The notes: generated by a model from the sequence alone, not told the origin. DNA of 64,000 nt from an uncultured Aliarcobacter sp. (GCA_963664305.2 CAXXLV010000002.1:1376001-1440000), one strand, 5' to 3'. Numbered from the stretch's first letter, positions 16,503 to 35,991 are shown. Translations and numbers: made by a program.

Positions 16503-16521
16503 AGTCAAATATGCAACAAAC

Positions 16522-18358: not shown

Positions 18359-19001
18359 AGATGAGTTAATGCTAAATAATGCGATAAGTGAATATTTAAG
18401 AAATATAGGTCATATGGTTGAAAGTTTCTCTGATGGACAAGATGTTCTTGATAATATCAATAGTTCATATGATTTACTTGTATTAGATATTAACGTTCCT
18501 ACAAAAGATGGTTTTGAAATTTTAAGTGAATTAAATAGCAAAAAAATTTACATACCAACAATTTTTATTTCTGCATTAATCGACATTGAAGATATCTCTA
18601 AAGCTTATGATTTAGGTTGTAGAGAATATATAAAAAAACCTTTCCATTTAGGTGAATTAGGTATAAAAATAAATCAAATACTAAAAAAAGAACAAAACAA
18701 TACTTCTCATATAAGATTTTCAGAAAATTACTCTTACTCAAAAGATAAACAAACTTTATATTTTAATGGTGAACCACAAAATTTGACAAAAAAACAGTTA
18801 GAAATAATTCATATTTTAGCACTTAATATAAATATGATAGTTGATTTTGAAAGATTTAGAATCGATATTTGGGATGGAGAAAATATAGATAATCCAACAA
18901 TAAGAGCTGAAATATCAAGATTAAAAAAAGCATTAAAAGAAGATTTCATAAAAAATATCAGAGGACTTGGCTATAAAATAGACAGATATTATTCTGTTTA
19001 A
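18339..19001 (+). CDS. OmpR/PhoB-family response regulator
   Basis: KILLLEDE, phosphoacceptor LVLDINVP, KKPF, winged-helix end IKNIRGLGYKI; overlaps the kinase gene. Confidence 0.95.
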   Translation: MKILLLEDELMLNNAISEYLRNIGHMVESFSDGQDVLDNINSSYDLLVLDINVPTKDGFEILSELNSKKIYIPTIFISALIDIEDISKAYDLGCREYIKKPFHLGELGIKINQILKKEQNNTSHIRFSENYSYSKDKQTLYFNGEPQNLTKKQLEIIHILALNINMIVDFERFRIDIWDGENIDNPTIRAEISRLKKALKEDFIKNIRGLGYKIDRYYSV

Positions 19002-19026
19002 AAAAGCCTAATCCTCGGCTTTTTTT
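19001..19026 (+). terminator. Intrinsic terminator after the response regulator
   Basis: AAAAAGCC-taatcctc-GGCTTTTTTT. Confidence 0.65.
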
Positions 19027-19083: not shown

Positions 19084-19117
19084 TTGCTACCTTTTTGCTA
19101 TTCACAATTGTTATAGT
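19084..19117 (+). promoter_or_regulatory. Direct-repeat activator box plus -10 (site 1)
   Basis: TTGCTAC-cttt-TTGCTAT, 10 nt, TATAGT (with upstream TG). Confidence 0.7.
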
Positions 19118-19176
19118 TTCATTGTTAATTATTTGACATTTATTTGTTTAATAAAAATTCAAAAAGGAGAGCTAAG

Positions 19177-19431
19177 ATGAGTCCAGAAAAAGCACAAGCA
19201 TACTGGAAAGAAAATATTTCTATGATTATCAAATTACTTGTAGTTTGGTTTCTAGTTTCTTTTGGTTGTGGAATTTTATTTATTAACGAACTAAACACTA
19301 TTGAGATTAGTGGAGTTAAATTAGGTTACTGGTTTGCACAACAAGGTGCGATTTATATATTTGTTATCTTAATTTTTGTTTACGTTAAAGTAATGACAGG
19401 AATTGATGAAAAATATGGCGTAAATGAATAG
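19177..19431 (+). CDS. DUF4212 small membrane protein (SSS transporter partner)
   Basis: AYWKEN...LGYWFAQQGAIYIFVILIFVY...DEKYGV; ATG at 19177 after SD AAGGAG. Confidence 0.9.
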   Translation: MSPEKAQAYWKENISMIIKLLVVWFLVSFGCGILFINELNTIEISGVKLGYWFAQQGAIYIFVILIFVYVKVMTGIDEKYGVNE

Positions 19432-19442
19432 GGAGTAGAAAG

Positions 19443-21338
19443 ATGGAATTACAAACATTAATTTATCTATTCGTAGGTGTTTCTTTTGCTATTTACATAG
19501 GTATTGCTTTATGGGCAAAAGCTGGTTCAACTAAAGATTTCTATGTTGCTGGTGGTGGAGTTCACCCTGTTGCAAATGGTATGGCTACTGCTGCTGACTG
19601 GATGAGTGCTGCGTCATTTATCTCACTTGCAGGTATTATTGCTTTCAAAGGAAGTGATGGAGCTGCATATTTAATGGGATGGACTGGTGGATACGTTCTA
19701 CTTGCGATGTTACTTGCTCCTTATTTAAGAAAATTTGGTAAATTTACTGTTCCAGATTTCGTTGGTGATAGATATTATTCTGATACAGCTAGACTTGTTG
19801 CTGTTATTGGTGTTATTTTCGTTTCATTTACTTATGTTGCAGGACAAATGAGAGGTGTTGGTATCGTATTCTCAAGATTCTTACAAGTTGATGTTAATAC
19901 AGGTGTTATCATTGGTATGGCAATTGTATTCTTCTACTCAGTTCTTGGTGGAATGAAAGGTATTACATATACTCAAGTTGCTCAATATGTTGTTATGATT
20001 TTTGCTTATACAATTCCAGCAATTTTCTTATCATTACAAGTAACTGATACATTTTTACCTCAATTAGGTATTTTTTCAACTACTACATTTGCATTTAGTA
20101 CAGGAGTACAAGTAATTCCAGAAGGAACTTATCTTTTACATGCACTAGATCAGTCGTTACTTGATTTAGGATTTAAACCTTATACTGAGCCAGGTAACTT
20201 ATGGAATGTATTTATGTTAACAACTGCTTTAATGTTAGGTACAGCTGGTCTTCCTCACGTTATTGTTAGATTCTTTACAGTTCCTACAGTAAAAGATGCG
20301 AGAGTATCGGCTGGTTGGGCTTTAGTATTCATTGCTATTATGTATACAACTATTTCTTCTGTTGCTTCTTTCTCAAGAATCAACTTAATTAAAAATGTAC
20401 AAAATGTTGAATATTCAACATTTGTAAATGGTGAAGCAAAACATATGGATGGTACGACAAACAATGGTAAATGGTTTGCTACATGGGAAAATGGTGGATT
20501 ATTAGCATGGAATGATAGAAATGGTGATGGTAAAATTCAATATGCTTCTGGAGCTGCATTTGATGGTAAAGGTGGAAAACCTGCATTTGATGGAGATAAA
20601 AGAGCTGAAGATGGTCACAAATTAAGCACAAATGCTAAAGGTGCAGCTGATGAAAAAGAATTAGCAAAAGGTAATGGAGTTGCTAATGAAATTTATGTTG
20701 ATAATGATATTATGGTTCTTGCAAATCCTGAGATTGCAAACTTACCAAATTGGGTTATTGCATTCATCGCAGCTGGAGGTTTAGCAGCAGCATTATCAAC
20801 TGCAGCTGGATTATTACTAGTTATTGCATCAGCTATTTCACACGATTTAATGGGACAAGTTATCTTCAAAGATAAAGCAACTGGTAAATCTACATTAAAT
20901 GAAAAAACTGAGTTAATGTGGGCAAGAATTTCAGCTATCGTTGCGATTGTTATTGCAGGATACTTAGGAATTAACCCTCCAGGTTTCGTTGCACAAGTTG
21001 TTGCTTTTGCATTTGGACTTGCAGCAGCTGCATTCTTCCCTACAATTATCCTTGGGGTATTTGATAAGAGAATGAATAAAGAAGGTGCGATTGCAGGTAT
21101 TTTAGTTGGTCTTATTTTCACATTCGGATACATCGTTTACTTCGTATTCATGGGTGGAAAACCAGAGAACTACTTATTTGGAATTAATCCAACAGGAATT
21201 GGAACTATTGGTACATTATTACACTTAATTGTGGCATTCGTTGTATCAAGAATGACTCCTCCACCTCCAACTGAGATTCAAGAATTAGTTGAGAGAATTA
21301 GAATTCCTTCTGGTGCTGGACAAGCATTAGATCACTAA
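19443..21338 (+). CDS. Sodium:solute symporter (ActP-related, VC_2705-like subfamily)
   Basis: [56 protein letters not shown]; many TM helices. Confidence 0.92.
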   Translation: MELQTLIYLFVGVSFAIYIGIALWAKAGSTKDFYVAGGGVHPVANGMATAADWMSAASFISLAGIIAFKGSDGAAYLMGWTGGYVLLAMLLAPYLRKFGKFTVPDFVGDRYYSDTARLVAVIGVIFVSFTYVAGQMRGVGIVFSRFLQVDVNTGVIIGMAIVFFYSVLGGMKGITYTQVAQYVVMIFAYTIPAIFLSLQVTDTFLPQLGIFSTTTFAFSTGVQVIPEGTYLLHALDQSLLDLGFKPYTEPGNLWNVFMLTTALMLGTAGLPHVIVRFFTVPTVKDARVSAGWALVFIAIMYTTISSVASFSRINLIKNVQNVEYSTFVNGEAKHMDGTTNNGKWFATWENGGLLAWNDRNGDGKIQYASGAAFDGKGGKPAFDGDKRAEDGHKLSTNAKGAADEKELAKGNGVANEIYVDNDIMVLANPEIANLPNWVIAFIAAGGLAAALSTAAGLLLVIASAISHDLMGQVIFKDKATGKSTLNEKTELMWARISAIVAIVIAGYLGINPPGFVAQVVAFAFGLAAAAFFPTIILGVFDKRMNKEGAIAGILVGLIFTFGYIVYFVFMGGKPENYLFGINPTGIGTIGTLLHLIVAFVVSRMTPPPPTEIQELVERIRIPSGAGQALDH

Positions 21339-21340
21339 AA

Positions 21341-21380
21341 ACTATAAAGTATACCTTCGGGTATACTTTTAGTATTTTTT
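21341..21380 (+). terminator. Terminator hairpin with C(UUCG)G tetraloop
   Basis: AAAGTATACC-TTCG-GGTATACTTT followed by T-rich tail. Confidence 0.8.
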
Positions 21381-21433
21381 TAAATTAAATATACTAATTT
21401 AATTTAGAAAAATACTAACAATAAAGGAAATAT

Positions 21434-23254
21434 ATGAGTATACAAGATCAAGAGGCTTTTCTTTCAAATATTCATCCTTTTCAAGTTTTAACTCCAGGTC
21501 AGATGTCTTTATGTATACAACACATGGATATTGCTTATTATCCAAAAGATACAGTATTAATAAGTCCAGAAAAAATTCCTAATCATTTTTTCATTATTAT
21601 AAAAGGTGCAGTTTATGAATATTCACCTGATAATATCGTTGTTATGGATTATCAAAATGAAGATTCTTTTGATTCAAATTCATTAATCTATGGAAAATGC
21701 AATAATACTTTTAGAGTAAATGAAGAACTTATTTGTTATGAAATTGAGAAAAATACTTTTTTAAATTTGATTGAAAAAAATCAACAATTTAAAGACTATT
21801 TTCTAAAAGATTTAGTAAATAAAATTCAATCATTAAAAGATAAAGAATATACTTCTCAACTTTCATCTTTTATGATTGCAAAAGTTGAAGATACACTAAT
21901 TCATGAAGCATGTATTGTTGATGAAAATACAAAACTTATCGATGCAATTCAAAAATCAATGGAATATAAAACTTCTACAATTATAATAAAAAAAGAGTCA
22001 GGTGAATATGGAATTATTACCGATTCACTTTTAAAAATAAAAGTATTATTAGAAGGAAGAGATTTAGATATTCCTGTTAGTAGTATTGCTATTTTCCCTC
22101 TTCTAACGGTAAATAATGATGATTATTTATTTGAAGCTTTAACAATTCTAATTAAAAGAAATATCAAAAGAATTGGTGTAACAAATAACAAAGGTGAAAT
22201 GATAGGTATACTAGAGCAAATTGATGTTCTTTCTCATTTTGCAAATCATAGTTATGTAGTTGATTCAAAAATTAAAAAAGCAAAAAATGTTGAAGATTTA
22301 AAATCTGCTAGCAAAGATTTGATTAATATTATAAAAAGCCTACATGCAAAAGGTGTTAAAGTAAATCATATTTCAAATCTAATTGGTCAATTAAATACAA
22401 AAGTCTATCAAAAACTTTATAATCTTGTACTTCCAAAAGAGTTACGAAATGATGCATGTTTTATAGTAATGGGAAGTGAAGGAAGAAATGAACAAATCAT
22501 AAAAACTGACCAAGACAATGCACTTGTTGTTAGAGATGATGTTGATGTTGAACAATACAGACCTTATATGCAAGAAATTACTAAACATTTAATAGACTTC
22601 GGTTATCCTCCTTGTGAAGGTAATATAATGGTTTCAAATCCATTTTGGTGTAAAAATGTAAAAGAATACAAAGCTGAAACAGTAAGATGGATAGAAGCAC
22701 CTGATATGCAAAACTATATGGATTTAGCAATATTCTTTGATTCATTTGCAGTTGCAGGAGATAAAGAACTTTTAATTAATTTAAAAGATAATTTATTTAA
22801 TAAACTTCATGATAAAGATGTATTTATGGCATATTTTGCAAGAGCTACACTTGCATTTGATACACCAACAACAATTTCAAATTTTATGACTAAAACTCAT
22901 TTTATAGATATTAAAAAAGCTGCTGTATTTCCAATAGTTCAAGGAATTAGAAGTTTAGCTTTAAGAGAAAGAATTAGAGAAACAACAACAGTAAAAAGAA
23001 TTAAAATTCTAGAAGAAAAAAGAATTATTGAAAAAGATAAAGCTGCTGAATTACTTGAAGCTTTTGATGTTGTTAATACTTTGAGATTAAAAGCTCAACT
23101 AGAAGATATTCAAGCAGGTAAAAAAATCAATAATGAAATAGATACTCATAGTTTAGGGAAAATTGAAAGAGATTTATTAAAAGATTCTTTCAAAATTGTT
23201 ATTGAATTTAAAAAATTCATTAATTATGTATTTAAAATTGATAAGATTTCATAA
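21434..23254 (+). CDS. cNMP-binding/CBS/DUF294 putative nucleotidyltransferase, copy 1
   Basis: N-terminal HPF..L cNMP-like domain, CBS pair, GlnD/GlnE-like GSEGRNEQ...TDQDNAL, GYPPCEGNIMVSNPFW, DUF294_C DIKK...FPIVQGIR. Confidence 0.9.
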   Translation: MSIQDQEAFLSNIHPFQVLTPGQMSLCIQHMDIAYYPKDTVLISPEKIPNHFFIIIKGAVYEYSPDNIVVMDYQNEDSFDSNSLIYGKCNNTFRVNEELICYEIEKNTFLNLIEKNQQFKDYFLKDLVNKIQSLKDKEYTSQLSSFMIAKVEDTLIHEACIVDENTKLIDAIQKSMEYKTSTIIIKKESGEYGIITDSLLKIKVLLEGRDLDIPVSSIAIFPLLTVNNDDYLFEALTILIKRNIKRIGVTNNKGEMIGILEQIDVLSHFANHSYVVDSKIKKAKNVEDLKSASKDLINIIKSLHAKGVKVNHISNLIGQLNTKVYQKLYNLVLPKELRNDACFIVMGSEGRNEQIIKTDQDNALVVRDDVDVEQYRPYMQEITKHLIDFGYPPCEGNIMVSNPFWCKNVKEYKAETVRWIEAPDMQNYMDLAIFFDSFAVAGDKELLINLKDNLFNKLHDKDVFMAYFARATLAFDTPTTISNFMTKTHFIDIKKAAVFPIVQGIRSLALRERIRETTTVKRIKILEEKRIIEKDKAAELLEAFDVVNTLRLKAQLEDIQAGKKINNEIDTHSLGKIERDLLKDSFKIVIEFKKFINYVFKIDKIS

Positions 23255-23886
23255 TGTTAGAAAATTTTTTTAAAAACTGGAATAGAAAAAGGTTAAAAGA
23301 TAAAAGATTTGATTTTTTATTTGATGAACCTTTACCAAATGAATTTGTATCATTAGATTGTGAAACTACTGGATTAAATCCAAAAAAAGACGAAATTCTT
23401 TCAATTGGAGCTGTTTTAATCAGAGATAACAAGATATTGATGAGAAAAACATTTAATATCTTTTTGAAACCTTCAAAAAATATAAATGCAGAATCAATTA
23501 AAATTCATCACATAAGAAAAGTAGATTTAGAAAATGCTCTTGAACCTCAAGATGCTATTTATCAACTACTAGATTTTATAGGTTCAAGACCAATTGTTGG
23601 TTATTATATAAAATTTGATGTAACAATCATTTCAAAATACACAAAAAATTTTATTGGTATAAAACTTCCTAATGAAACTATTGAAGTTTCATCTTTATAT
23701 TTCAAAACAAGAAAAAGATCAAGTGACTATCAATTTATTGATTTAAAATTTGACACTATTTTAAAAACATTAGATATTCCTGCTCTTGGGAAACATGATG
23801 CATTAAATGATGCTATCATGACTGCTATGATGTTTCTTAAACTAAAAGATTTAACTCCAGCGAAAACTACTTTCTATACAAATTAA
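23254..23886 (+). CDS. DEDDh 3'-5' exonuclease family protein (DnaQ-like), copy 1
   Basis: SLDCETTGL, KIHHI, KFD, HDALNDA; translationally coupled to the DUF294 gene. Confidence 0.9.
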   Translation: MLENFFKNWNRKRLKDKRFDFLFDEPLPNEFVSLDCETTGLNPKKDEILSIGAVLIRDNKILMRKTFNIFLKPSKNINAESIKIHHIRKVDLENALEPQDAIYQLLDFIGSRPIVGYYIKFDVTIISKYTKNFIGIKLPNETIEVSSLYFKTRKRSSDYQFIDLKFDTILKTLDIPALGKHDALNDAIMTAMMFLKLKDLTPAKTTFYTN

Positions 23887-23986
23887 GGATTTTATTCCTA
23901 ATTTGTATTTTATTTTTTAATAATATAATAACTCAATATATTTTCATTTTGAAAATATTATTAAAATTTTTAAAAATTATTTTTAA

Positions 23987-24020
23987 ATGCTATGCTATTG
24001 CGACTTTAATAGTCTAAGAT
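23987..24020 (+). promoter_or_regulatory. Direct-repeat activator box plus -10 (site 2)
   Basis: ATGCTAT-gcta-TTGCGAC, 10 nt, TAAGAT. Confidence 0.6.
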
Positions 24021-24056
24021 TTCAAACATTTAAAAAGAATCTTACACGGGAGGCGA

Positions 24057-24374
24057 ATGATGGATAAAGAATTAGTTAACAAAATTAAATCTAATCCTAA
24101 ATATAAAGAGTTAGTTGAAAAAAGAAACTCGTTTTCTTTAAAACTATCTATTTTTGTTTTAGTTATGTTTTATGCATTTGTACTAGTAATTGCTTTTGAT
24201 AAAGAGTTATTAGCTACAAAAATTGGTGAGGGAGTTATGACTGCTGCATTTCCAGTTGGAGCTGCGATTATTATAATTAGCTTTATTACTACATTAATTT
24301 ATGTTAAAAGAGCAAATACTGAATTTGAAGATTTAACAAATGAAATCAAAAATGATGTAAAGGATTTATTATAA
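24057..24374 (+). CDS. DUF485 (YjcH-like) small membrane protein, copy 1
   Basis: [14 protein letters not shown], two TM helices, [11 protein letters not shown]; coupled to actP. Confidence 0.9.
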
Positions 24375-26023
24375 TGTTAAGAATTGTTACAATATTAAGT
24401 TTATTTGCATTAGCAATGTTTGCTGCAGGTGATGCAACGTTTGAAGGTAAAAGAGATTTAAATATCTCTGCAATTATAATGTTCTTTATATTTATTGCTG
24501 GAACATTAGGTATCACTAAATGGGCTGCAAGTAAAACAAAATCTGCTTCAGATTTCTATACAGCTGGTGGAGGAATTTCAGGATTCCAAAATGGTATGGC
24601 TATTGCTGGAGATTATATGTCTGCTGCTTCTTTCCTTGGTATTTCAGGTATGATTTACTTAAATGGATTTGATGGTTTAGTTTATGCTGTTGGATTTTTA
24701 GTTGGTTGGCCAGTAATTTTATTCTTAATGGCTGAAAAATTAAGAAACTTAGGTAAATTTACATTTACTGACATTGCTGCTTATAGATTATCACAAAAAG
24801 AAATCAGAATTTTAGCTGCATTTGGTTCTTTATCTGTTGTTACTTTATATTTAATTGCACAAATGGTTGGGGCTGGAAAATTAATTCAAATCTTATTTGG
24901 TATGGATTATGAGTATGCTGTTATCCTTGTTGGTGTTATGATGATTATTTATGTTACTTTTGGTGGTATGTTAGCAACTACTTGGGTGCAAATCATTAAA
25001 GCTGTATTATTATTATCTGGTGTTACTTTCATGGGATTAATGGTAATGGCTCACTATGGATTCTCTTTTGAAGCATTAGCTACAAAAGCTGTTGAAACAC
25101 ACGCAAAAGGTCAAGCTATTATGGCTCCAGGTGGATTTATCTCTGATCCTATTTCTGCTATTTCTTTAGGTATGGCATTAATGTTAGGAACTGCTGGTTT
25201 ACCACACATTTTAATGAGATTCTTTACTGTTGGAAATGCGAAAGAAGCTAGAAAATCTGTTGTTTATGCAACTGGATTCATCGGTTACTTCTATTTAATT
25301 ATCGCTGTAATTGGTTTAGGTGCTATTGTATTCTTAAACTCTCCAGAAGGTGCTCAATACTTCAAAGATGGTAAGTTAATTGGTGGTGGAAATATGGCTG
25401 CTATTCACTTATCTCATGTTGTTGGTGGAGATATTTTCTTAGGATTTATTTCAGCTGTTGCATTTGCTACAATTTTAGCGGTTGTATCTGGTTTAACACT
25501 TGCTGGAGCTTCTGCAATTTCTCACGATATCTATGCAATCGTTGTGAAAAAAGGTATGGCTACTGAAGCTGATGAAATTAAAGTTTCTAAAAGATCAGTT
25601 ATCATCATTGGAATTGTTGGTGTTATTTTAGGTATTGCATTTGAAAAACAAAATATTGCATTCATGGTTGGTCTTGCATTTGCTATTGCTGCTTCTGCTA
25701 ACTTCCCAATTTTATTCCTTTCAATTTACTGGAAAAAATTAACAACTAGAGGAGCATTCCTTGGTGGATTTGCTGGATTAATCACAGCAGTTGTTCTAGT
25801 TATCTTAGGTCCTGTTGTTTGGGTTGATGTTTTACATAATAAAGAAGCTATTTTCCCATATAAACACCCAGCTTTATTCTCTGTAACTGTTGCATTCGTA
25901 GCAATTTGGTTCTTCTCTATAACTGATAAATCAGCTAGAGCACAAGAAGAAATTGAATTATATGAAGGACAAAATGTTAGAGCTAATACAGGTATTGGTG
26001 CTGACGGAGCTGTTGCTCACTAA
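24374..26023 (+). CDS. actP: Cation/acetate symporter ActP, copy 1
   Basis: [73 protein letters not shown]-terminal TGIGA..AVAH. Confidence 0.92.
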
Positions 26024-26028
26024 TAAAA

Positions 26029-26055
26029 TTACTAAAGAGATTTTCTCTTTAGTAA
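26029..26055 (+). terminator. Terminator-like hairpin after actP copy 1
   Basis: TTACTAAAGAGA-ttt-TCTCTTTAGTAA. Confidence 0.65.
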
Positions 26056-26293
26056 CTTATCTTCTATTATAAAATCTAACTTAAGAATTATAATTAAAAT
26101 TAATAATTTATAATTCAATTTTTTGTTACATTTCTACAAAAATCTACACAATTTTTACACATTTTAAAAAATTTTTTCCTACAAATTTGTATTTGCATGT
26201 ATAATCAGTTACTTTTTTTCATTTAAAGGCACACTATAAATGAAAAAGGCTAATAGACATTATTGTTTATTAACTAGAAAAAAGGGAGCAAAA

Positions 26294-26608
26294 ATGAACG
26301 ACGAATTGGTTACTCGTATTGAATCAAATCCTAAATATAAGGAATTGGTTTCAAAAAGAAATGGTTTAGGAATTAAACTAGGTATTTTTGTATTAGTTAT
26401 GTTTTATGCATATATTTTAGTTATAGCATTTAACAAAGAACTTTTATCTACAAAAATTGGAGATGGTGTTACAACAATTGCATTTCCTATTGCATTGGCT
26501 ATTTTAGTAATTAGCTTTATTACTACATTAATTTATGTAAAAAGAGCAAATACTGAATTTGAAGATTTAACAAATCAAATCAAAAAAGATGTAAAGGATT
26601 TATTATAA
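26294..26608 (+). CDS. DUF485 (YjcH-like) small membrane protein, copy 2
   Basis: Paralog of 24057..24374; ATG at 26294 after SD GGGAG. Confidence 0.9.
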
Positions 26609-28278
26609 TGTTGAGAATTTTAGCACTAATTTCAATTATTGCATTAACAGCTTTTGCTGCAGGTGATGCAACTTTTGAAGCAACAAAAAGAGATCTTAAT
26701 GTATCTGCAATTATCATGTTTTTTGTATTTATTGTTGGTACATTAGGTATTACTTATTGGGCAGCAAGAAAAACAAAATCTGCTTCTGATTTCTATACAG
26801 CAGGTGGAGGAATTTCTGGTTTTCAAAATGGTTTAGCAATTGCTGGAGACTATATGTCAGCTGCTGCATTCCTTGGGGTTTCTGGTCTTATTTATATGAA
26901 AGGTTATGATGGAGTTATCTATGCCGTTTCATTCCTTGTTGGTTGGCCAATTATTTTATTCTTTATGGCTGAAAAATTAAGAAACTTAGGTAAATTTACT
27001 TTTGCTGACATCGCTGCTTATAGATTAGGACAAAAAGAGATTAGAACTCTTGCTGCATTTGGTTCTATTTCAGTTGTAATTTTATACTTAATTGCACAAA
27101 TGGTTGGAGCTGGAAAATTAATTCAAGTTCTATTTGGTATGGAGTATGAGTACGCTGTATTCATGGTTGGAGCATTAATGATTATTTATGTAACATTTGG
27201 GGGGATGCTAGCAACTACTTGGGTACAAATTATCAAAGCTTGTTTATTACTTTCTGGTGTATCATTTATGGCAATAATGGTTTTATATCATTTTGATTTC
27301 TCTTTTGAATCACTTGCTGTTAAAGCTGTTGAAAATCACAAATCTGGTGAAGCTATTTTAAGTCCAGGTGGATTTATTACTGACCCTATTTCTGCTATTT
27401 CTTTAGGTATGGCTTTAATGCTTGGAACAGCTGGTCTTCCTCACGTTTTAATGAGATTCTTTACAGTTGGTAATGCAAAAGAAGCTAGAAAATCTGTTGT
27501 TTATGCAACTGGATTTGTTGCATACTTCTGGGTAATTATTACTATCGTTGGTTTTGGAGCAATTGCATTCTTAAATAGTGCAGAAGGTGCACAATATTTT
27601 GATGGTGCTAAAGCATATCTTGAGGGTGGAAAACTATTTGGTGGAAGTAATATGGCTTCTGTTCACTTATCTCATATGTTAGGTGGAAATGCATTCTTAG
27701 GATTTATCTCTGCTGTTGCATTTGCTACTATTTTAGCGGTTGTTTCAGGATTAACACTTGCTGGTGCTTCTGCAATATCACACGATATTTATGCGAATGT
27801 AATCAATCCAAATGCATCAGATGAAAAAGTTGTAAAAATTTCAAAAATTACAGTTGTTATTATTGGTATTATTGGTGTTATTTTAGGGATTGCTTTTGAA
27901 TCTCAAAATATTGCTTACATGGTTGGTCTTGCATTTGGTATTGCGGCATCTGCAAACTTCCCAATTTTATTCTTATCAATCTACTGGAGTGGATTAACAA
28001 CTAAAGGTGCATTTATTGGTGGATTTATGGGATTAATTTCTGCTGTAACATTTGTTGTTTTAGGACCAAATGTTTGGGTTCAAATTTTAGGAAATGAAAA
28101 AGCAATTTTCCCTTACGCACACCCTGCACTATTCTCTGTTACAATAGCTTTTGTATCAATCTGGTTTTTCTCAAAACTTGATAATTCACAAAGAGCTAAA
28201 AACGAAAAAGAATTATTTAGAGCTCAAAATATTAGAGCAAATACAGGTATTGGTGCAGCTGGAGCTGTTTCACACTAA
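26608..28278 (+). CDS. actP: Cation/acetate symporter ActP, copy 2
   Basis: Same ActP motifs; close paralog of 24374..26023. Confidence 0.9.
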
Positions 28279-28283
28279 ATTAT

Positions 28284-28312
28284 AAATATCAAAGGTTTTC
28301 CTTTGATATTTT
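28284..28312 (+). terminator. Terminator-like hairpin after actP copy 2
   Basis: AAATATCAAAGG-tttt-CCTTTGATATTT. Confidence 0.65.
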
Positions 28313-28374
28313 AACTGTTCTGGCGATTGAATAAAAAATTCAATCTAGTCTTTTATATTTACAAAAGAGGACAT

Positions 28375-30216
28375 ATGAGTATATTAGAACAAAAAACATT
28401 TATCTCTTCAATACATCCATTTCAAAACTTAACATCAGAACAACTAGACACTTTCGTTGAAAATATGGATATTGTTTATTTTAAAGAGAATGAAACAGTA
28501 CAAGCACAAGGAACAATACCAAAATCACTTTTTTTTATTTTAAAAGGTTTGATTCAAGAAAAACAAGATGATGAAGTTTTATCAATCTATTCAAAAAATG
28601 AAATCTTTGATTCAATATCTTTAATTGAAAATTATTCAAAAAATAGTTTTGTGACTGCAGAAGAGACGATTTGTTACACTCTTCCAAGAGAAATTTTTAT
28701 AGAAATACTTCATGAAAATCAAGAGTTAGAGAACTATTTTTTCCAATCAATTGCTGAAAAGCTAAACAACAATATTCTTCATGAAAAAAATAAAGATATG
28801 GCGAATATTATGATAGCAAAAGTAAAAGATGCAAAAATTCATAAAGCCGTAATTGTTGATACAAATATCTCAATATTTGAAGCAGCAACAATTATCAAAA
28901 AAGAGAAAGTTCCTACAATTTTATTAAAAGATGAAAATAATGAAATGTATATAGTAACTGACTCTGATTTTAGACAAAAAGTAATTTTAAACAGAATGGA
29001 TTTTGACGATAAAATCGTAAAAATTGCAACAAAAGGTTTAATATACATAAATGAAGAAGATTTTTTATTTAATGCTCAATTAATCATGGCAAAACATGGG
29101 ATAAAAAGAGTTGTTGTAAAAAATGATAAAAATGAAATAATTGGTATATTAGACCAAATCTCTTTATCATCGTTCTTTGCTACAAATATTTTTTCTGTTT
29201 CGAATCAAATTGTAAAAGCTGAAACAATTGAAGAACTAAAAGAAGCTTCTTTATCATTTATTAAAATCATTAAATCACTAAATGCAAAAGGTGTAAAAAT
29301 TGAATTTATATCAAAATTAATAAATCAATTAAATAAAAAACTTTTAGATAAATTATACAAAGTTTTAGCACCTGCTGAATTATATGAAAAATCATGTTTG
29401 GTAGTAATGGGAAGTGAAGGTAGAGGTGAACAAATCTTAAGAACTGACCAAGACAATGCTTTAATATTAGCAGATGATTGTGAGATTTCAGAAGAAAAAC
29501 TAAGAGAATTCACAACTTTATTTACTGAAACTTTAGTTGACTTTGGATTTCCAAGATGTGAAGGAAATATCATGGTTTCGAATCCTTATTGGTGTAGAAA
29601 AAAATCTGATTTTAAAGATTTAATTTTCACTTGGATAAATGAACCAAGTGGTGATAATTTTATGAATATTGCTATTTTTTATGATGCAGTTTGTGTATCA
29701 GGAAATAAAGAATTACTTACAAAACTAAAAGAGTATCTATTTAGTATTGCTGCTAATTCTCAACAGTTTAACTCTCATTTTGCAAAAGTTATCACGAGCT
29801 TCGATGTTCCATTAGGATTTTTTGATGGATTTGTATTTAATAGTAAAGATAACAAACATAAAAATGAAATAGATATTAAAAGAGGTGGTATTTTTATTCT
29901 TGTTCAAGGTATTAGAAGTTTGAGTTTAGAGCATAAAATATTCAATACAAACACAAATAAAAGAATAAAAAAACTTACAGAACTTGGTGTTTTTGAAGAA
30001 GAATTTGCAAAAGAGTTAACAATGGCATTTAACTTTTTAACAAATTTAAAATTGAAATCAAATCTTGAAAAATTAGATAAAAAAATTGCTATAGATAACT
30101 ATATCAATCCTGATAATTTAAATACAATGGAAAAAGATTTACTAAAAGAGTCTTTTAAAATTGTAAATAAATTAAAGAAAAAATTAGAATTTCATTTCAA
30201 GTTAAACTATGTTTAG
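28375..30216 (+). CDS. cNMP-binding/CBS/DUF294 putative nucleotidyltransferase, copy 2
   Basis: GSEGRGEQILRTDQDNAL, GFPRCEGNIMVSNPYW, DIKRGGIF..VQGIR; ATG at 28375 after SD GAGG. Confidence 0.9.
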   Translation: MSILEQKTFISSIHPFQNLTSEQLDTFVENMDIVYFKENETVQAQGTIPKSLFFILKGLIQEKQDDEVLSIYSKNEIFDSISLIENYSKNSFVTAEETICYTLPREIFIEILHENQELENYFFQSIAEKLNNNILHEKNKDMANIMIAKVKDAKIHKAVIVDTNISIFEAATIIKKEKVPTILLKDENNEMYIVTDSDFRQKVILNRMDFDDKIVKIATKGLIYINEEDFLFNAQLIMAKHGIKRVVVKNDKNEIIGILDQISLSSFFATNIFSVSNQIVKAETIEELKEASLSFIKIIKSLNAKGVKIEFISKLINQLNKKLLDKLYKVLAPAELYEKSCLVVMGSEGRGEQILRTDQDNALILADDCEISEEKLREFTTLFTETLVDFGFPRCEGNIMVSNPYWCRKKSDFKDLIFTWINEPSGDNFMNIAIFYDAVCVSGNKELLTKLKEYLFSIAANSQQFNSHFAKVITSFDVPLGFFDGFVFNSKDNKHKNEIDIKRGGIFILVQGIRSLSLEHKIFNTNTNKRIKKLTELGVFEEEFAKELTMAFNFLTNLKLKSNLEKLDKKIAIDNYINPDNLNTMEKDLLKESFKIVNKLKKKLEFHFKLNYV

Positions 30217-30823
30217 AAATATAAGAAACTATTTTAATAAAAAAAATCTAAAAGACGAAAAATACTCTTATTTATTTGAAAACTCTTCAAATAATGAGTA
30301 TGTTTGTTTTGATTGTGAAACAACTGGGTTAAATCCAAAAATTGATGACATAATATCAATTGGTGCTGTTATTATCAAAGATAATACAATTGTTTCAAGT
30401 AAAAAATTTATTAAATTTGTTAAACCAAAAACTAAATTGCAAGCTGAAGCTATAAAAATTCATCATATAAGAGAGTGTGATTTACTTCATGCTGAAGATA
30501 TCAATGATGTAATTATTGAATTTATTGAATTTATAGGAAATAGACCATTAGTTGGATATTTTTTAGAATTTGATATTTCAATGATTAATAAATATTTAAA
30601 ACCAAAATTAGGAATTACTCTTCCAAATAGAGCTCTTGAGGTTTCAGAAATTTATCATGATTATAAAATTGAAATCATTCCTCAAGGACATATAGATTTA
30701 AGATTTAATTCTATTATGGAAGAACTTCAAATCCCAAATCTTGGTAAACACGATGCATATAACGATGCAATAATGACTGCCATGATTTTTATAAAACTTA
30801 AAAACTTACAAAAAATTAAATAA
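30209..30823 (+). CDS. DEDDh 3'-5' exonuclease family protein, copy 2
   Basis: FDCETTGL, KIHHI, EFD, HDAYNDA; overlaps the DUF294 stop. Confidence 0.9.
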   Translation: MFRNIRNYFNKKNLKDEKYSYLFENSSNNEYVCFDCETTGLNPKIDDIISIGAVIIKDNTIVSSKKFIKFVKPKTKLQAEAIKIHHIRECDLLHAEDINDVIIEFIEFIGNRPLVGYFLEFDISMINKYLKPKLGITLPNRALEVSEIYHDYKIEIIPQGHIDLRFNSIMEELQIPNLGKHDAYNDAIMTAMIFIKLKNLQKIK

Positions 30824-30846
30824 ACTAGAAAAGGAAAATTAGAATA

Positions 30847-32037
30847 ATGTTAGTATTTGTATTAAATGCTGGGTCATCATCTTTAAAATATCAATTAATC
30901 AACGCTGAAACTTCTGAGTTAAAAGCTAGTGGAATTGTTGAGAGAATTGGAATAGATGGTGTATTAAAGCATGTAATTTCAGAAAATAAAAAATTAACTA
31001 TTGAAGAATATATACCATCACATAAAGAAGCTATAGAACTTATATTAGAAACACTTACACATGATGAAACAAAAACTATAAACTCTATTGATGAAATCCA
31101 AGCTATAGGACATAGAGTTGCTCATGGTGGAGAATATTTTAAAGAATCAACTCTTGTTACAGATAAAGTTATAAAAAAAATTGAAGAGTTAATTCCACTA
31201 GCACCTTTACATAATCCAGCTAATATTTTAGGAATGAAAATCTGTATGGAACTTATGCCAAATGTTCCAAATGTTGCTGTATTTGATACGGCATTTCACC
31301 AAACTATGCCAGAAATTCATTTCTTATTCCCAGTACCACATGAAGATTATACAGAGCATCATTTAAGAAAATATGGATTCCATGGTACATCTCATAATTA
31401 TGTTTCAAAAGAAGCAATTAAACTTTTAAACAATAAAAAAGATTCAAAAATCATTGTTTGTCACCTTGGAAATGGTTCATCAATCTGTGCAATAAAAGAT
31501 GGTAAATCAATCAACACAACTATGGGATTAACTCCACTAGGAGGATTGATGATGGGAACAAGAAGTGGAGATATTGACCCAGGAATTATTCCATATTTAA
31601 TGGATAAAAAAGGTATGGATACTCACCAAATTATTGATTATCTAAACAAAAAATCTGGTATTTTAGGAGTTTCAGGAATTAGTTCTGATTTAAGAGAAAT
31701 TATTAGTGCTGCTAATAATGGAGACCAAAGAGCTCAAGTTACAATTGATATGATGTGTAATCGAGTTAAAAAATATATTTGTTCTTATTCAGGATTATTA
31801 GGTGGTGCTGATGCAATTTGTTTTACAGCAGGAATTGGTGAAAACTCTGATTTAATAAGAGAAAAAGTTTGCGAAAATTTAGCTTTCATGGGAATTGAAC
31901 TTGACAGTGAAAAAAATCAAGTAAGAGCACATGGAAACAGAGAAATAAATAAACCAACATCAAAAACTAAAATCTTTGTAATTCCTACAAATGAAGAATT
32001 GGTAATTGCAAAAGACACATATAATCTTGTAAAATAA
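30847..32037 (+). CDS. ackA: Acetate/propionate kinase 1 (HRVAHGG, propionate-kinase-like pocket)
   Basis: LNAGSSSLKYQL, APLHNP, FDTAFHQT, YGFHGTSH, HLGNG, FTAGIGEN, PTNEE. Confidence 0.9.
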   Translation: MLVFVLNAGSSSLKYQLINAETSELKASGIVERIGIDGVLKHVISENKKLTIEEYIPSHKEAIELILETLTHDETKTINSIDEIQAIGHRVAHGGEYFKESTLVTDKVIKKIEELIPLAPLHNPANILGMKICMELMPNVPNVAVFDTAFHQTMPEIHFLFPVPHEDYTEHHLRKYGFHGTSHNYVSKEAIKLLNNKKDSKIIVCHLGNGSSICAIKDGKSINTTMGLTPLGGLMMGTRSGDIDPGIIPYLMDKKGMDTHQIIDYLNKKSGILGVSGISSDLREIISAANNGDQRAQVTIDMMCNRVKKYICSYSGLLGGADAICFTAGIGENSDLIREKVCENLAFMGIELDSEKNQVRAHGNREINKPTSKTKIFVIPTNEELVIAKDTYNLVK

Positions 32038-32052
32038 ATCTATCTTATACTT

Positions 32053-32086
32053 AAAGTATTATGTACATATTTGTACATGATACTTT
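32053..32086 (+). terminator. Hairpin after ackA1
   Basis: AAAGTATTATGTACA-tatt-TGTACATGATACTTT. Confidence 0.65.
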
Positions 32087-32286
32087 TAAATCCTATTTTT
32101 TACTCAAAATAATTTCTAAAACCTTTAGTTTCTCTACACTTTTTTAATTTATTGTTACTTTTTACTTTAAATTATTCAATTCTGATATCTTTATAAAACA
32201 AAATTAATTTTAAAAGCAAATTTAGATTTAAGTTTTATTATAATGCGTACAAATTTTATATTATAAAAATAATAAAGGAAAAATTT

Positions 32287-33474
32287 ATGTTAGTATTTGT
32301 ATTAAATGCTGGTTCATCTTCTTTAAAATATCAATTAATCAATGCAAAAACATCTGAATTAAAAGCAAGTGGACTAGTAGAAAGAATTGGAATCGATGGT
32401 ATTCTAAAACATGAAGTAGGAGAAAATAAAAAATTAACTTTTGAATTACCTATTCCTACTCATAAAGAAGCAATTGAATTAGTTCTTAGAATTTTAACAA
32501 ATGATGAAACTAAAGTTATTAACTCAATTAGCGAAATTGAAGCTATTGGACATAGAGTTGTTCATGGTGGAGAATATTTTAAAAAATCTGTTTTAATAGA
32601 TAATGAAGTAATCGATAAAATTGAAGAACTTATCCCTTTAGCACCATTACATAATCCAGCTCACGTAATTGGAATAAAAATTTGTAGAGAATTAATGCCA
32701 AATGTTCCTAATGTTGCAACTTTTGATACAGCATTCCACCAAACAATGCCAGAAGAAAACTTCTTATATGCAGTTCCATATGGAGATTACACTGAGCATC
32801 ACTTAAGAAAATATGGTTTTCACGGAACTTCACACTATTATGTTTCAAATGAAGCTGTAAAACTTTTAAATAAAAAGAATAGCAGAGTTATTGTTTGTCA
32901 CTTAGGTAATGGTTCTTCTGTGTGTGCAGTTAAAGACGGAAAATCAATAGCAACTTCAATGGGATTAACTCCACTTGAAGGTTTAATCATGGGTACAAGA
33001 TGTGGAGATATTGATGCAGGTGTTATTCCATATTTAATGGAAAGAAAAGGTCTTGATTCTCACCAAATTATCAATTACTTAAATAAAAAATCTGGAATTT
33101 TAGGAGTTTCTGGAATTAGTTCAGATTTAAGAGAAGTAATAAAAGCATCAAATGATGGAGATAAAAGATCTAGAATTGCAATTGAAATGTTATGTGGAAG
33201 AATTAAAAAATATCTTTGTTCATACGCTGGATTAATGCAAGGAGTTGATGCAATTTGTTTCACAGCTGGTATTGGTGAAAACTCTGATTTAATTAGAGAA
33301 AAAGTTTGTGAAGGTTTAGATTTCATGGGAATTGAAATGGATACTGAAAAAAATAAAGTTAGAACTCCTGGAATAAGAGAAATTCATAAAGAATCTTCTA
33401 AAACAAAAATCTTTGTTATTCCTACAAATGAAGAATTAGTTATTGCAAAAGACACATACAATTTAGTTAAATAA
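32287..33474 (+). CDS. ackA: Acetate kinase 2
   Basis: Canonical HRVVHGG and SMGLTPLEGL plus the other acetokinase motifs. Confidence 0.95.
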   Translation: MLVFVLNAGSSSLKYQLINAKTSELKASGLVERIGIDGILKHEVGENKKLTFELPIPTHKEAIELVLRILTNDETKVINSISEIEAIGHRVVHGGEYFKKSVLIDNEVIDKIEELIPLAPLHNPAHVIGIKICRELMPNVPNVATFDTAFHQTMPEENFLYAVPYGDYTEHHLRKYGFHGTSHYYVSNEAVKLLNKKNSRVIVCHLGNGSSVCAVKDGKSIATSMGLTPLEGLIMGTRCGDIDAGVIPYLMERKGLDSHQIINYLNKKSGILGVSGISSDLREVIKASNDGDKRSRIAIEMLCGRIKKYLCSYAGLMQGVDAICFTAGIGENSDLIREKVCEGLDFMGIEMDTEKNKVRTPGIREIHKESSKTKIFVIPTNEELVIAKDTYNLVK

Positions 33475-33514
33475 GAATAAATTGTTACCTTTTAGAATTC
33501 TATTTTAAAATTGA

Positions 33515-33543
33515 GTATTATGTACAATTATTGTACATAATAC
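33515..33543 (+). terminator. Hairpin after ackA2 (homologous to the one after ackA1)
   Basis: GTATTATGTACAA-tta-TTGTACATAATAC. Confidence 0.6.
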
Positions 33544-33688
33544 CATACTTTTTTACATATTTAAAACAAATAAACTCCATATATTATCACTATTTCTCAC
33601 TTAGATGATATTTTTTTATATTTATGTATATTTTATGTACTTTTTTTTAATTATGATATAAAATATACATAAGTGAGATTATAAGAGA

Positions 33689-33722
33689 TTGCTATTTTAA
33701 TGCTATGTTTCTCAATTATAAT
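33689..33722 (+). promoter_or_regulatory. Direct-repeat activator box plus -10 (site 3)
   Basis: TTGCTAT-ttta-ATGCTAT, 10 nt, TATAAT. Confidence 0.75.
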
Positions 33723-33761
33723 TTTTCCACAAAGTTTAATAGTAGAAAGGATAACTTACCT

Positions 33762-34757
33762 ATGGGTTTAATTGAAAGTATCAAAGAGAAAGCGAAACTA
33801 CAATTAAGAACTATTGTTCTGCCTGAGCCAGAAGATGAAAGAGTTTTAAAAGCTGCTCAACAAGTAATTGAAGAAAAAACTGCAAAAGTTGTGTTAATTG
33901 GAAATGTTGAAACTATAAAAGCAGATGCTGCAAAGTGTGGTGCAAATATAGAAGGTGCAACAATTGTTGACCCAAAAAATTTCGACAATATCAATAAATA
34001 TATTGATGAGTTAGTTGAATTAAGAAAAAGTAAAAATCTTTCAAAAGAAGAAGCTACTGAAATTATGTTAAATGAGCCAAGATTTTTTGGTTGTATGATG
34101 GTAAGACTTGGTGATGCAGATGGTTTAGTTGCAGGTTCAAATTCTCCAACTGCTGATGTTTTAAAAGCTGCTATTCAAGTTATTAAAACTGCGCCTGGAA
34201 TTAATACTGTTTCTTCTACATTTATTATGGAAACGGCTGATGGTAAATTTGGAGATAATGGTTTAATATTATTTGCAGATTGTGCTGTTATTCCAGAACC
34301 AAATGCAGAGCAATTAGCTGACATCGCTTGTGCAACTGCTGCAACTGCTGCTTCTGTTGTAGGTTTAGATCCAAGAGTTGCAATGTTATCATTCTCAACA
34401 AAAGGAAGTGCTTCTCATCCATTAGTTGATAAAGTACAATATGCTTGTGATATTCTAACTGAAAGAAATGTTGATTTCTCATTTGATGGTGAGTTACAAG
34501 CTGATGCTGCTATTATTGAATCAATTGGTGCTAAAAAAGCTCCAGGTTCAAAAGTTGCAGGAAAAGCTAATATTTTAGTATTCCCTGATTTACAATCTGG
34601 AAATATCGGATATAAACTTGTTCAAAGATTTGCAGGAGCTGAAGCTCACGGTCCAATCGTTCAAGGATTAAATCAACCAGTAAATGACCTTTCAAGAGGT
34701 TGTTCAGTAGAAGATATTGCAAATTTAGTTGCAATCACAGCTACACAAATTAAATAA
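33762..34757 (+). CDS. pta: Phosphate acetyltransferase (short, catalytic domain only)
   Basis: IVLPEPEDERVL, FADCAV, DGELQADAA, FPDLQSGNIGYK, PVNDLSRGCS; ATG at 33762. Confidence 0.96.
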   Translation: MGLIESIKEKAKLQLRTIVLPEPEDERVLKAAQQVIEEKTAKVVLIGNVETIKADAAKCGANIEGATIVDPKNFDNINKYIDELVELRKSKNLSKEEATEIMLNEPRFFGCMMVRLGDADGLVAGSNSPTADVLKAAIQVIKTAPGINTVSSTFIMETADGKFGDNGLILFADCAVIPEPNAEQLADIACATAATAASVVGLDPRVAMLSFSTKGSASHPLVDKVQYACDILTERNVDFSFDGELQADAAIIESIGAKKAPGSKVAGKANILVFPDLQSGNIGYKLVQRFAGAEAHGPIVQGLNQPVNDLSRGCSVEDIANLVAITATQIK

Positions 34758-34791
34758 TTTTAAATCAATAACAAAACTAAGGAGAGAGAGT

Positions 34792-35991
34792 ATGTTAGTA
34801 TTCATTTTAAATGCAGGAAGTTCATCATTAAAGTATCAATTAATGAACCCAGTTATCAAAAAAGTATTTGCACAAGGTATTTGTGAAAGAATCGGTATTG
34901 ATGGTGTTTTAAAACATGAATTTGGTGAAGGTAAAGAGTTCAAAAAAGAAATTCCAATGCCAACTCATAAAGAAGCTATCGAAGCTGTATTATCAACTTT
35001 AACAGTTGGTGAAGGTAAAGTTATTGATTCAGTAAATGATATTGATGCTATTGGACACAGAGCAGTTCATGGTGGAGAAGAGTTTGCTGGTTCTGTTTTA
35101 GTAACTGATAAAGTGATTGAAACAATGAAAAAACTAATTCCATTAGCACCTTTACACAATCCTGCAAATATTTTAGGAATGGAAATTTGTCAAGATTTAA
35201 TGCCAGGTAAACCAAATGTTGCAGTATTTGATACAGCATTCCACCAAACTATGCCTGATTATGCTTATATGTATGCATTACCATATGACCAATATACAAA
35301 ACATGGTATTAGAAAATATGGATTCCATGGAACATCTCACTTCTTTGTTTCTAGTGAAGCAAGAAATATGTTAGATAAAAACCATAATACTAGAATCATC
35401 GTTTGTCACTTAGGAAATGGTTCTTCTGTAAGTGCTGTATTAAATGGTAAATGTATTGATACTTCAATGGGTCTTACACCAGTTCAAGGTTTAATGATGG
35501 GAACAAGAGCTGGAGATGTTGGAGCTGGTGCATTACAATATATGATGAGTCAAGAAGGTTTATCTATAGATCAAGCATTAGATATCATGAATAAAAAATC
35601 AGGTATCTTAGGAATTTCTGGAAAATCTTCAGATTTAAGAGAAGTTTTACAAGGAATGCAAGATGGTGATGAAAGATGTAGATTAGCAGTTGATATGGTT
35701 GCTTATAACATCAAAAAATATGTTGGAGCATATGTTGCTGCACTTGATGGTGTTGATGCATTATGTTTCACAGGTGGAATTGGAGAAAATGCTGCATTAA
35801 TTAGAGAAAAAGTATGTGCAGGATTAGACTCAATGGGATTAGTAATTGACCCAGTTAAAAATAATAGAAGATCAAGAGAAGCAAGAGATATTGCAACTAA
35901 TGCATCTGCTTCTAGAATTTTTGTTATTCCTACAAATGAAGAGTATGTAATTGCTAACGATACTTATAAAGTTGTTACAGAAACTAAATAA
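34792..35991 (+). CDS. ackA: Acetate kinase 3
   Basis: Acetokinase motifs (HRAVHGG, FTGGIGEN, PTNEE); ATG at 34792 after AAGGAG; operonic with pta. Confidence 0.95.
   Translation: MLVFILNAGSSSLKYQLMNPVIKKVFAQGICERIGIDGVLKHEFGEGKEFKKEIPMPTHKEAIEAVLSTLTVGEGKVIDSVNDIDAIGHRAVHGGEEFAGSVLVTDKVIETMKKLIPLAPLHNPANILGMEICQDLMPGKPNVAVFDTAFHQTMPDYAYMYALPYDQYTKHGIRKYGFHGTSHFFVSSEARNMLDKNHNTRIIVCHLGNGSSVSAVLNGKCIDTSMGLTPVQGLMMGTRAGDVGAGALQYMMSQEGLSIDQALDIMNKKSGILGISGKSSDLREVLQGMQDGDERCRLAVDMVAYNIKKYVGAYVAALDGVDALCFTGGIGENAALIREKVCAGLDSMGLVIDPVKNNRRSREARDIATNASASRIFVIPTNEEYVIANDTYKVVTETK

Follow-up and report, generated by a model that had tools for sequence, protein, structure and literature searches.

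A stretch of 64,000 nucleotides from the genome of an uncultured Aliarcobacter sp. (GCA_963664305.2 CAXXLV010000002.1:1376001-1440000, referred to here as the window) carries the same tandem repeat at three separate promoters, and the genes behind them are annotated with functions in carboxylate transport and acetate conversion. A gene pair encoding a sensor histidine kinase (HK1) and a response regulator of the OmpR/PhoB family (RR1) lies 5' of the first repeat. The question raised by this locus is whether the repeats, called boxes below, are the sites of the regulator encoded beside them, and if so what the system would sense and what it would switch on. The box is enriched in the genome at a single spacing, is conserved in sequence, position and strand, and, in several families, occurs together with the regulator lineage at acetate genes. 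On this basis the boxes are read, with a probability of about 0.7, as tandem sites of the phosphorylated regulator encoded at 18339-19001, which would be partnered by the sCache_2 kinase and would activate the carboxylate operons. A regulon of the sensor-regulator pair next door is plausible, and the binding protein, the activation, the transcription starts and the ligand are all predicted from sequence.

Three boxes in the window

The kinase and regulator genes, the three boxes and the hexamers that follow them are located as follows (window coordinates).

16775..18358, + strand: sensor histidine kinase HK1 (Pfam sCache_2, HisKA, HATPase_c)
18339..19001, + strand: OmpR/PhoB-family response regulator RR1 (Pfam receiver and winged helix; relatives in the PDB)
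19084-19101, + strand: box 1, TTGCTAC-cttt-TTGCTAT, upstream of the DUF4212/symporter operon
19112-19117, + strand: -10-like hexamer TATAGT, 10 nt past box 1
23987-24004, + strand: box 2, ATGCTAT-gcta-TTGCGAC, upstream of DUF485-actP1
24015-24020, + strand: -10-like hexamer TAAGAT, 10 nt past box 2
33689-33706, + strand: box 3, TTGCTAT-ttta-ATGCTAT, upstream of pta-ackA3
33717-33722, + strand: -10 hexamer TATAAT, 10 nt past box 3

A first-pass annotation of the window had described WTGCKAY-N4-WTGCKAY at 19084, 23987 and 33689, and both the sequences and the coordinates were confirmed exactly. The 11-nt period and the distance of ten nucleotides (N10) to a TAnnnT hexamer likewise hold at all three sites. 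The K (G or T) assigned to position 5 of the motif fits the window but is too narrow for the genus, as A is also allowed: in relatives the second, promoter-proximal half-site of box 2 at actP1 is TTGCAAC. By inspection of the sequence, spacers of 11 and 22 nt separate the half-sites from the -10 hexamer, and neither is the distance of a -35 element. The layout is that of a pho-box-like class II promoter, in which the repeat pair abuts the -35 region and keeps a constant ~10 bp to a sigma-70 -10 hexamer, with no -35 hexamer. The likeness to the pho box claimed in the first-pass annotation agrees with the PhoB sites described in the available parts of PMC1906773, which are tandem repeats of 11-nt period with an A/T-rich linker, 10 bp upstream of a TAN3T -10 element.

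The combination of N10 with no -35 element argues, by analogy, for activation by a tandem dimer that would touch RNA polymerase. In the proposed mechanism, ligand binding would raise the kinase activity of HK1, and a head-to-tail dimer of the regulator would occupy the two half-sites with their 11-nt period. The half-sites would stand in for the -35 element; with the hexamer placed at -12 to -7, the two 7-mers fall at about -40 to -34 and -29 to -23. Bound in this way, the dimer would bring RNA polymerase to the -10 element and turn on DUF485-actP1, pta-ackA and the DUF4212/symporter operon, and a fourth promoter of the same design would make a small hairpin RNA.

Simple scans of the window contribute little here. 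None of the three promoters is among the best 60 of 90 sites from a sigma-70 scan that needs a -35 element, and the sigma-70/terminator scan is uninformative in this AT-rich window (90 promoter-like sites compared with 109.5 in shuffles). Autoregulation was also looked for, and no box was found upstream of the kinase gene at 16775.

Enrichment and spacing in the genome

The degenerate pattern matches three times in the 64-kb window, always on the plus strand, compared with a shuffle mean of 0.02, and none of 100 shuffles reaches three matches; this test is circular, as the pattern was taken from the very sites it is meant to test. When up to two mismatches are allowed, the window contains 10 matches against 13.2 expected, which is no enrichment. 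Both the post hoc definition of the pattern and the flat count at two mismatches would suit the simplest alternative, namely that the three matches arose by chance in AT-rich intergenic DNA, and this alternative has to be set against the wider genome.

The window's own genome (G000; contigs C1 and C2) is 2.78 Mb in length with 27% G+C, and contains eight exact matches to the 18-nt pattern. Intergenic counts were made with a crude coding mask (ORFs of at least 100 aa). Outside this mask TGCTA-N6-TGCTA occurs eight times, whereas every other spacing from 0 to 19 gives between zero and two occurrences. The total, unmasked counts of TGCTA-Nx-TGCTA over x=0-19 show in-frame peaks that come from coding repeats.

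A matrix trained on 46 unique sites, the three window sites included, carries ~2.6 bits at the G and the C of each half-site and 0-0.3 bits over most of the N10 spacer. A genome scan for box, N10 and -10 had been proposed in the first-pass annotation. With this matrix it returned four places above 26 bits. Three are the window sites (36.2, 30.1 and 30.0 bits), on which the matrix was partly trained, and the fourth is C2:1685766(-), with 26.8 bits; the next-best match scores 22.1. Across five complete genomes of the genus (G002, G003, G008, G012 and G017) the geometry pattern gives 23 matches and its reversed control none. Twenty of the 23 fall at the same four promoters, and of the three extra matches one lies within a coding sequence, one before a sulfite-oxidase-like gene and one before a gene for a hexapeptide-repeat protein.

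Conservation across the genus

Box 1 is located 3' of the regulator gene in all loci of the genus with an orthologous regulator (23 of 23, the window counted). Its form in these loci is WTGCTAY-N4-TTGCWAY followed by ten variable bases and the hexamer, while the remainder of the spacer varies in both length and sequence. The hexamer is TATAAT at the same N10 in all 22 relatives, compared with TATAGT in the window. Box 3, at the pta promoter, is present in 22 of the 22 loci printed, and the 23rd genome is covered by the comparison of clusters. That comparison consists of 18 regulator-to-pta stretches, the window and 17 fetched from the genus. All three boxes occur at the same three promoters on the coding strand in every one of them, with the gene order kept and the flanks diverged. 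The 18 clusters contain 54 box promoters, every one with the N10 spacing, and box 2 is followed at the same distance by a TAnnAT hexamer in all 17 relatives.

Orthologues of the kinase, with 69-91% identity, are found in 22 of the 24 other genus genomes. One genome that seemingly has no regulator (G022) probably carries the pair in an assembly gap, because the symporter gene there is cut by the end of a contig. The spacing control (8 compared with 0-2), the retention of the boxes in each of the 18 clusters between flanks that have diverged, and the 23 matches against none in the reversed control refute the chance explanation, the likelihood of which is negligible.

A fourth promoter and a predicted small RNA

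The fourth strong match in the genome, C2:1685766(-), consists of a box, N10 and TATAAT with no ORF behind it (G000:C2:~1685660-1685766, minus strand). The corresponding features are:

L089:550-567, - strand: box
L090:1578-1649, - strand: predicted small RNA

This region is kept in 24 of 24 genus genomes at 67-81% DNA identity, and in all 24 the promoter has a box, N10 and a TAYAMT hexamer. Some 30 variable bases past the hexamer there follows a 10-bp hairpin, whose 15-nt loop is invariant in 23 of the 24 genomes. The loop of G015 differs, and this sequence was omitted from the fold. Among the 23 folded sequences, compensatory changes are seen in five of the ten stem pairs, and in many copies a T-run lies past the stem. 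These features suggest a box-dependent small RNA of ~65 nt, with its strand and ends predicted from the sequence. A search of Rfam gave no credible family, the only match being a snoRNA model with E = 0.78. A target search with 9-10-nt complements of the invariant loop gave at least 215 places, almost all in coding sequences, and none convincing at a ribosome-binding site.

The regulator and the box beyond the genus

Regulators of the OmpR/PhoB family bind tandem direct repeats of ~10-11 bp period as head-to-tail dimers. RR1 has an N-terminal Pfam Response_reg receiver (1e-20) with the acidic pocket, the phospho-acceptor Asp and the conserved Ser/Thr and Lys (E7-D8, D51 in LLVLDINVP, ISA and KKPF), and a C-terminal Trans_reg_C domain that scores 40.6 bits against a cut-off of 26.2; full-length matches are found to the solved regulators DrrD, BasR and PhoP. 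The recognition helix, NPTIRAEISRLKK, is near-invariant in the 23 orthologues of the genus.

Beyond the genus, TGCTAYNNNNWTGCTA was searched for in 14 genomes from other families of the order. Orthology was judged by the kinase, and regulators with other sensors, e.g. that of G036, are missed in this way. Four of the genomes contain homologues of the system; of the 11 matches in these four, 6 lie between genes and have N10 and a TAnnnT hexamer. Boxes with this geometry are found at acs and DUF4212 in G025, and at a gene for an unknown small protein in G028. G031 has a box at an OprD-type porin gene beside the regulator, and another at a Cache chemoreceptor. G040 has a single exact box, which stands at an operon of an OprD-type porin, DUF485 and actP; an sCache_2 kinase and its regulator are encoded 3.8 kb away. 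In the other ten genomes one of 19 fetched matches (22 matches in all) has the geometry, and most of the others lie within long ORFs. That single match, in G036, is also the only exact box of its genome and is followed by N10 and TATTAT; it precedes an acs-kinase-regulator-DUF485-actP operon. The G036 regulator is 50% identical to RR1 and has the same IRAEISRLKK helix; in the kinase of G036 no Cache domain can be recognised.

The box, the N10 distance to the -10, the recognition helix and the acetate genes travel together across families. The central proposal of the first-pass annotation, that the adjacent Cache kinase and OmpR regulator control the box operons, draws comparative support from the 23 of 23 loci, from the helix and from three other families. 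Its expectation of a box at acs is borne out in G025 and G036. In the window's own genome, a search of the ORFs of at least 100 aa, in a sequence short of 8000 bases of contig C1, gave no Acs orthologue (best match 27% identical).

In G040 a McrBC-like restriction module, made up of genes with MrcB_N and DUF2357, lies between the kinase-regulator pair and the box operon (L167:3050-6700).

A paralogous pair and sister motifs

The genome contains about 30 OmpR-type regulators. The closest paralogue of RR1 (C2:1544812-1545471) is 52% identical to it, and forms a pair with a kinase whose sensor weakly resembles NosP/FIST (NCBIfam). This pair (G000:C2:1541190-1545471, L123) is divergent from an aldehyde dehydrogenase-DUF779-HDOD operon. 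The aldehyde dehydrogenase promoter contains four half-sites of 11-nt period, GCTATACT repeats, the last of which lies N10 before TAAGAT or TAGAAT. In ten relatives these half-sites read nGCTAtACT, so that the GCTA core is common to both systems and the T before the G is missing. The recognition helices also differ, that of the paralogue being NATIRAEVNRVKT and that of RR1 NPTIRAEISRLKK. Together these data point to two sister systems with a common GCTA core and different flanks.

A match to the sensor of the paralogue with at least 66% identity is present in 10 of the 24 other genus genomes; in 13 the sensor was not found, and one more has only a 36% match. Among the 13 are the five complete genomes listed above, which keep all four box promoters. 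As a factor required for the boxes the paralogue is ruled out, because these five genomes, in which its sensor was not found, retain the promoters.

Against this background the boxes might be read by a different OmpR-family regulator, either the paralogue or one of the ~30 others, and the adjacency of RR1 to box 1 would then be coincidental or reflect shared control. The number of such regulators in the genome lends this some weight, as do the paralogue promoter, with its GCTA core, 11-nt period and N10, and the similarity of NATIRAEVNRVKT to NPTIRAEISRLKK. The distribution of the paralogue's sensor in the genus argues the other way, as does the lack of a conserved T before the G in its half-sites, and regulators with an RR1-type helix adjoin the box in G031, G036 and G040. 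Reading by another regulator is on balance rather improbable, and RR1 is retained below as the predicted binding protein.

A third sister motif is TGCGA-N6-TGCGA. It is repeated near -10-like hexamers at G000:C1:296849(+), 311367(-) and 319901(-), upstream of a porin gene and of genes for Tct-like tripartite transporters, each beside its own kinase-regulator pair.

A broader interpretation is offered only tentatively. The Cache/OmpR lineage could be widespread in this order of AT-rich bacteria, with a hitherto unrecognised acetate and small-monocarboxylate regulon defined by a TGCTAY-N4-WTGCTAY box and comprising transporters, porins, Acs or Pta-AckA, as well as the ~65-nt small RNA with its invariant C/U-rich loop. 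The pair with the FIST/NosP-like kinase, the GCTATACT repeats and the aldehyde dehydrogenase would then be a recent duplication, in which the flank of the half-site insulates sister regulons from each other. If this is true, the lineage acts at both the transcriptional and the post-transcriptional level.

The sensor kinase and its candidate signal

Hydrophobic stretches at about residues 8-30 and 210-232 of HK1 flank a periplasmic sCache_2 domain (residues 51-195; 106 bits in Pfam), which is followed by HisKA, with the H-box HEINTPL, and HATPase_c, in the architecture of an sCache_2 kinase. The closest solved relatives of the sensor are 2qhk/4exo, 4k08 and 5g4y, four sCache_2 chemoreceptor domains. 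According to the available parts of Brewster et al. (PMC5062169), 4EXO was crystallised with pyruvate and 4K08 with acetate, while PscD (5G4Y) binds glycolate, acetate, propionate and pyruvate. The general statement of the first-pass annotation that sCache_2 domains commonly bind such carboxylates is in keeping with this, the ligands of these closest relatives being C2-C3 acids. Of the seven contact residues in PscD, three could be mapped in the HK1 pocket; the equivalents of Tyr90 and Tyr143 are kept, and Asn replaces His103. HK1 also has a Tyr equivalent to Vibrio Tyr70, which contacts the keto group of pyruvate. The ligand of the HK1 sCache_2 domain is most likely a small monocarboxylate, e.g. 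acetate, pyruvate, lactate or propionate, as judged by these comparisons.

Evidence against the proposed regulon

Several observations weigh against the regulon as proposed here. The genome contains five more exact or near-exact boxes that do not have the N10 spacing (C1:25508, C2:392341, C2:459880, C2:1600241 and C2:1353334). The box at C2:392341 is in the lctP promoter, N8 from TATCAT, and that at C2:459880 abuts TATAAT at a chemoreceptor gene; the other three (C1:25508, C2:1600241 and C2:1353334) have no clear target. As a member of the regulon lctP was downgraded, its box being intact in five of nine orthologous promoters and degenerate in four, at a spacing of N8. A genome that is 82% complete (G007) has the small-RNA box, and neither the regulator nor any of the cluster genes were found in its assembly. 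In G025 a search of the fetched kinase locus (E <= 1e-20) gave no regulator. Cross-binding by the paralogue may occur, because it has the GCTA core in common. The ligand is unsure, with Asn in place of His103 and two of the three named PscD contacts kept. The physiological direction is also unsure, given the lack of an Acs orthologue, the reversibility of Pta-AckA and the reported lack of growth of A. butzleri on acetate (PMC2147049, available parts).

A box before the sulfite-oxidase-like gene that does not have N10 has a counterpart with the full geometry in G003 (L189).

Some of these points suit an alternative in which the adjacent regulator does bind the boxes, but with a different outcome or signal, such as repression or fine-tuning of constitutive promoters, a pyruvate or lactate signal that drives the formation of acetate via Pta-AckA, or a response to a non-carboxylate. 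The pocket Asn and the Tyr for the pyruvate keto group are compatible with it, as are the missing Acs and the available account of mutant fitness that ties the DUF4212 symporter family to the use of lactate and D-alanine (10.1101/072470). The G036 kinase, with no recognisable Cache domain, may be placed beside these. In four relatives (G013, G014, G005 and G011; L062, L063, L064 and L067) a TGCTA box, exact or with one mismatch, is located downstream of the conserved TGTATAAT of the actP2 promoter, which suggests repression rather than activation there; this box is absent in the window. Such a change of outcome or signal is nonetheless unlikely: the strict N10 to the -10 with no -35 is the known design of PhoB-type activation (PMC1906773, as above), and the box is found at acs and actP in other families. 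Activation by RR1 in response to a carboxylate is still preferred.

Expression data from A. butzleri bear on a further alternative. In the available parts of a microarray study (PMC3445524) the symporter AB0504, ackA1-pta (AB0494-0495) and the ald locus (AB0377) change together, and AB0504, ackA1-pta and ald are up with sigma-2 and down with sigma-7. Going by gene names and numbers, AB0504 and AB0494-0495 would be orthologues of window genes; their joint changes in a likely congener would fit a shared control. The study credits the changes to extracytoplasmic function (ECF) sigma factors, possibly indirectly, which also tells against the regulon proposed here. The box would on such a view be an element of an alternative sigma factor, or the operons would be indirectly co-regulated, e.g. 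by ECF sigma-2/sigma-7, and the box would not be the target of a two-component system. TATAAT-type -10 hexamers, a tandem 11-nt repeat at 11 and 22 nt that does not have -35 geometry, and a box that moves with the regulator lineage across families make a sigma-factor element or purely indirect co-regulation highly improbable.

Relation to known systems

PhoB of Escherichia coli activates at the pho box in place of a -35 element. The system described here is like it in having an OmpR/PhoB-family regulator, two direct repeats of 11-nt period and 10 bp to the -10. It is unlike PhoB in its half-site (WTGCTAY), in its score against the NCBIfam PhoB model (71.8 bits, cut-off 296) and in its periplasmic Cache sensor, and its targets are carboxylate transport and acetate conversion rather than phosphate uptake as in the Pho regulon.

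Control of acetate genes is shared with CrbS/CrbR (MxtR/ErdR), the regulator of which, CrbR, is not known to be OmpR-type. In Vibrio and Pseudomonas this two-component system switches on acs and actP (PMC5715377 and PMC8402216, available parts). The likeness is one of function, as the first-pass annotation had put it, and not one of sensor homology: HK1 has an sCache_2 sensor and, in Pfam, neither an SSF nor a STAC domain, which places it outside the CrbS/CrbR family.

MctS/MctR of Rhizobium leguminosarum, in which a kinase with a Cache2 sensor regulates an adjacent monocarboxylate permease of the sodium:solute family (alanine, pyruvate, lactate; PMC9100948, available parts), provides the NCBIfam model that best matches the sensor part of HK1 (MctS, NF052443). 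That match reaches 111.7 bits against a cut-off of 700 and aligns residues 9-223 only, so HK1 falls outside this family as well. Identity with MctS/MctR was rejected: a tblastn search of HK1 against plasmids (E <= 1e-15) gave no Rhizobium match, only records from Sulfurovum and Sulfurospirillum.

CreBC of E. coli is also a pair of the OmpR family; ackA-pta belongs to its regulon, and it binds at a direct repeat of 11-nt period. The Cre repeat word is different, and CreC is not known to have a Cache domain. The window pair scores far below the NCBIfam cut-offs of this system (75.7 bits against 273 for CreB, 59 against 356 for CreC), and does not belong to it.

A literature search, whose coverage mostly did not extend to subscription journals, found no published description of the system or the motif. 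Two-component systems abound in this bacterial group. The A. butzleri genome paper states, in its available parts, that most two-component systems are too dissimilar to known ones for functional prediction (PMC2147049). A host-cell transcriptome reports the induction of actP and yjcH and names no regulator. The locus appears to encode an uncharacterised system of a well-known regulator kind, with a well-defined motif and a compact, conserved regulon. One such system can thus be assigned a concrete motif in DNA, a few candidate targets and a probable type of signal. The processes that it would cover, namely the transport of acetate and similar acids and the Pta-AckA node, are important for growth in wastewater, sediments and animal guts. 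A ready test case is provided by the four identically designed promoters, among them that of a predicted, unannotated small RNA, and the natural pair of paralogues offers a way to study how close regulators keep their sites apart. Activation at PhoB-type tandem repeats is textbook knowledge; the value here is in annotation and testability, not in a new principle.

Genes of the cluster

The remaining features of the cluster are:

19000..19026, + strand: hairpin and T-run directly after the regulator stop codon (read from sequence)
19177..21338, + strand: DUF4212 small subunit (likely start 19177) and VC_2705-family sodium:solute symporter (19443-21338) (Pfam; NCBIfam)
21434..23886, + strand: DUF294/CBS/cNMP-binding protein and RNase T-like exonuclease (Pfam; synteny in 18/18 clusters)
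24057..26023, + strand: DUF485 protein and cation/acetate symporter ActP1 (Pfam; NCBIfam)
26240..33474, + strand: DUF485b-ActP2, second DUF294-exonuclease pair, ackA1, ackA2 (Pfam)
33763..35991, + strand: phosphate acetyltransferase (pta) and third acetate kinase (ackA3 ORF 34729-35991) (Pfam)

The hairpin at 19000..19026 probably acts as a terminator between the regulator gene and the promoter of box 1; it is not in the list of the simple terminator scan. The DUF4212 protein and its symporter score above the cut-offs of NCBIfam TIGR03647 and TIGR03648, and a terminator-like hairpin lies past the symporter (21346-21369). Whether the DUF294-exonuclease pair that follows is co-transcribed from box 1 is uncertain. 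In the available parts of Price et al., COG2905 is cofit with DUF4212 symporters. ActP1 scores 899.5 bits with the NCBIfam ActP subfamily model (cut-off 750), and a terminator-like hairpin is again located past its gene (26029-26055). The likely start of pta, from alignment with relatives, is 33763, and the listed ORF start (33705) falls within the promoter.

A block of four tRNA genes, read from the sequence, occurs twice in tandem directly 5' of the kinase gene (window 15890-16700). The cluster contains three acetate kinase paralogues (window 30847-35991), namely ackA1, ackA2 and, after pta, ackA3; of the 17 related clusters, 10 have no ackA1. No box is found in 26240..33474 in the window's genome. 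A conserved word, TGTTAC..TCTACA (window 26120-26165), occurs upstream of DUF485b/actP2 in 18 of 18 clusters. It recurs at the lctP promoter (L124; GTAAC-N6-GTTAC) and in the spacer between the paralogous kinase and the aldehyde dehydrogenase gene (L123), and is probably the site of a second regulator.

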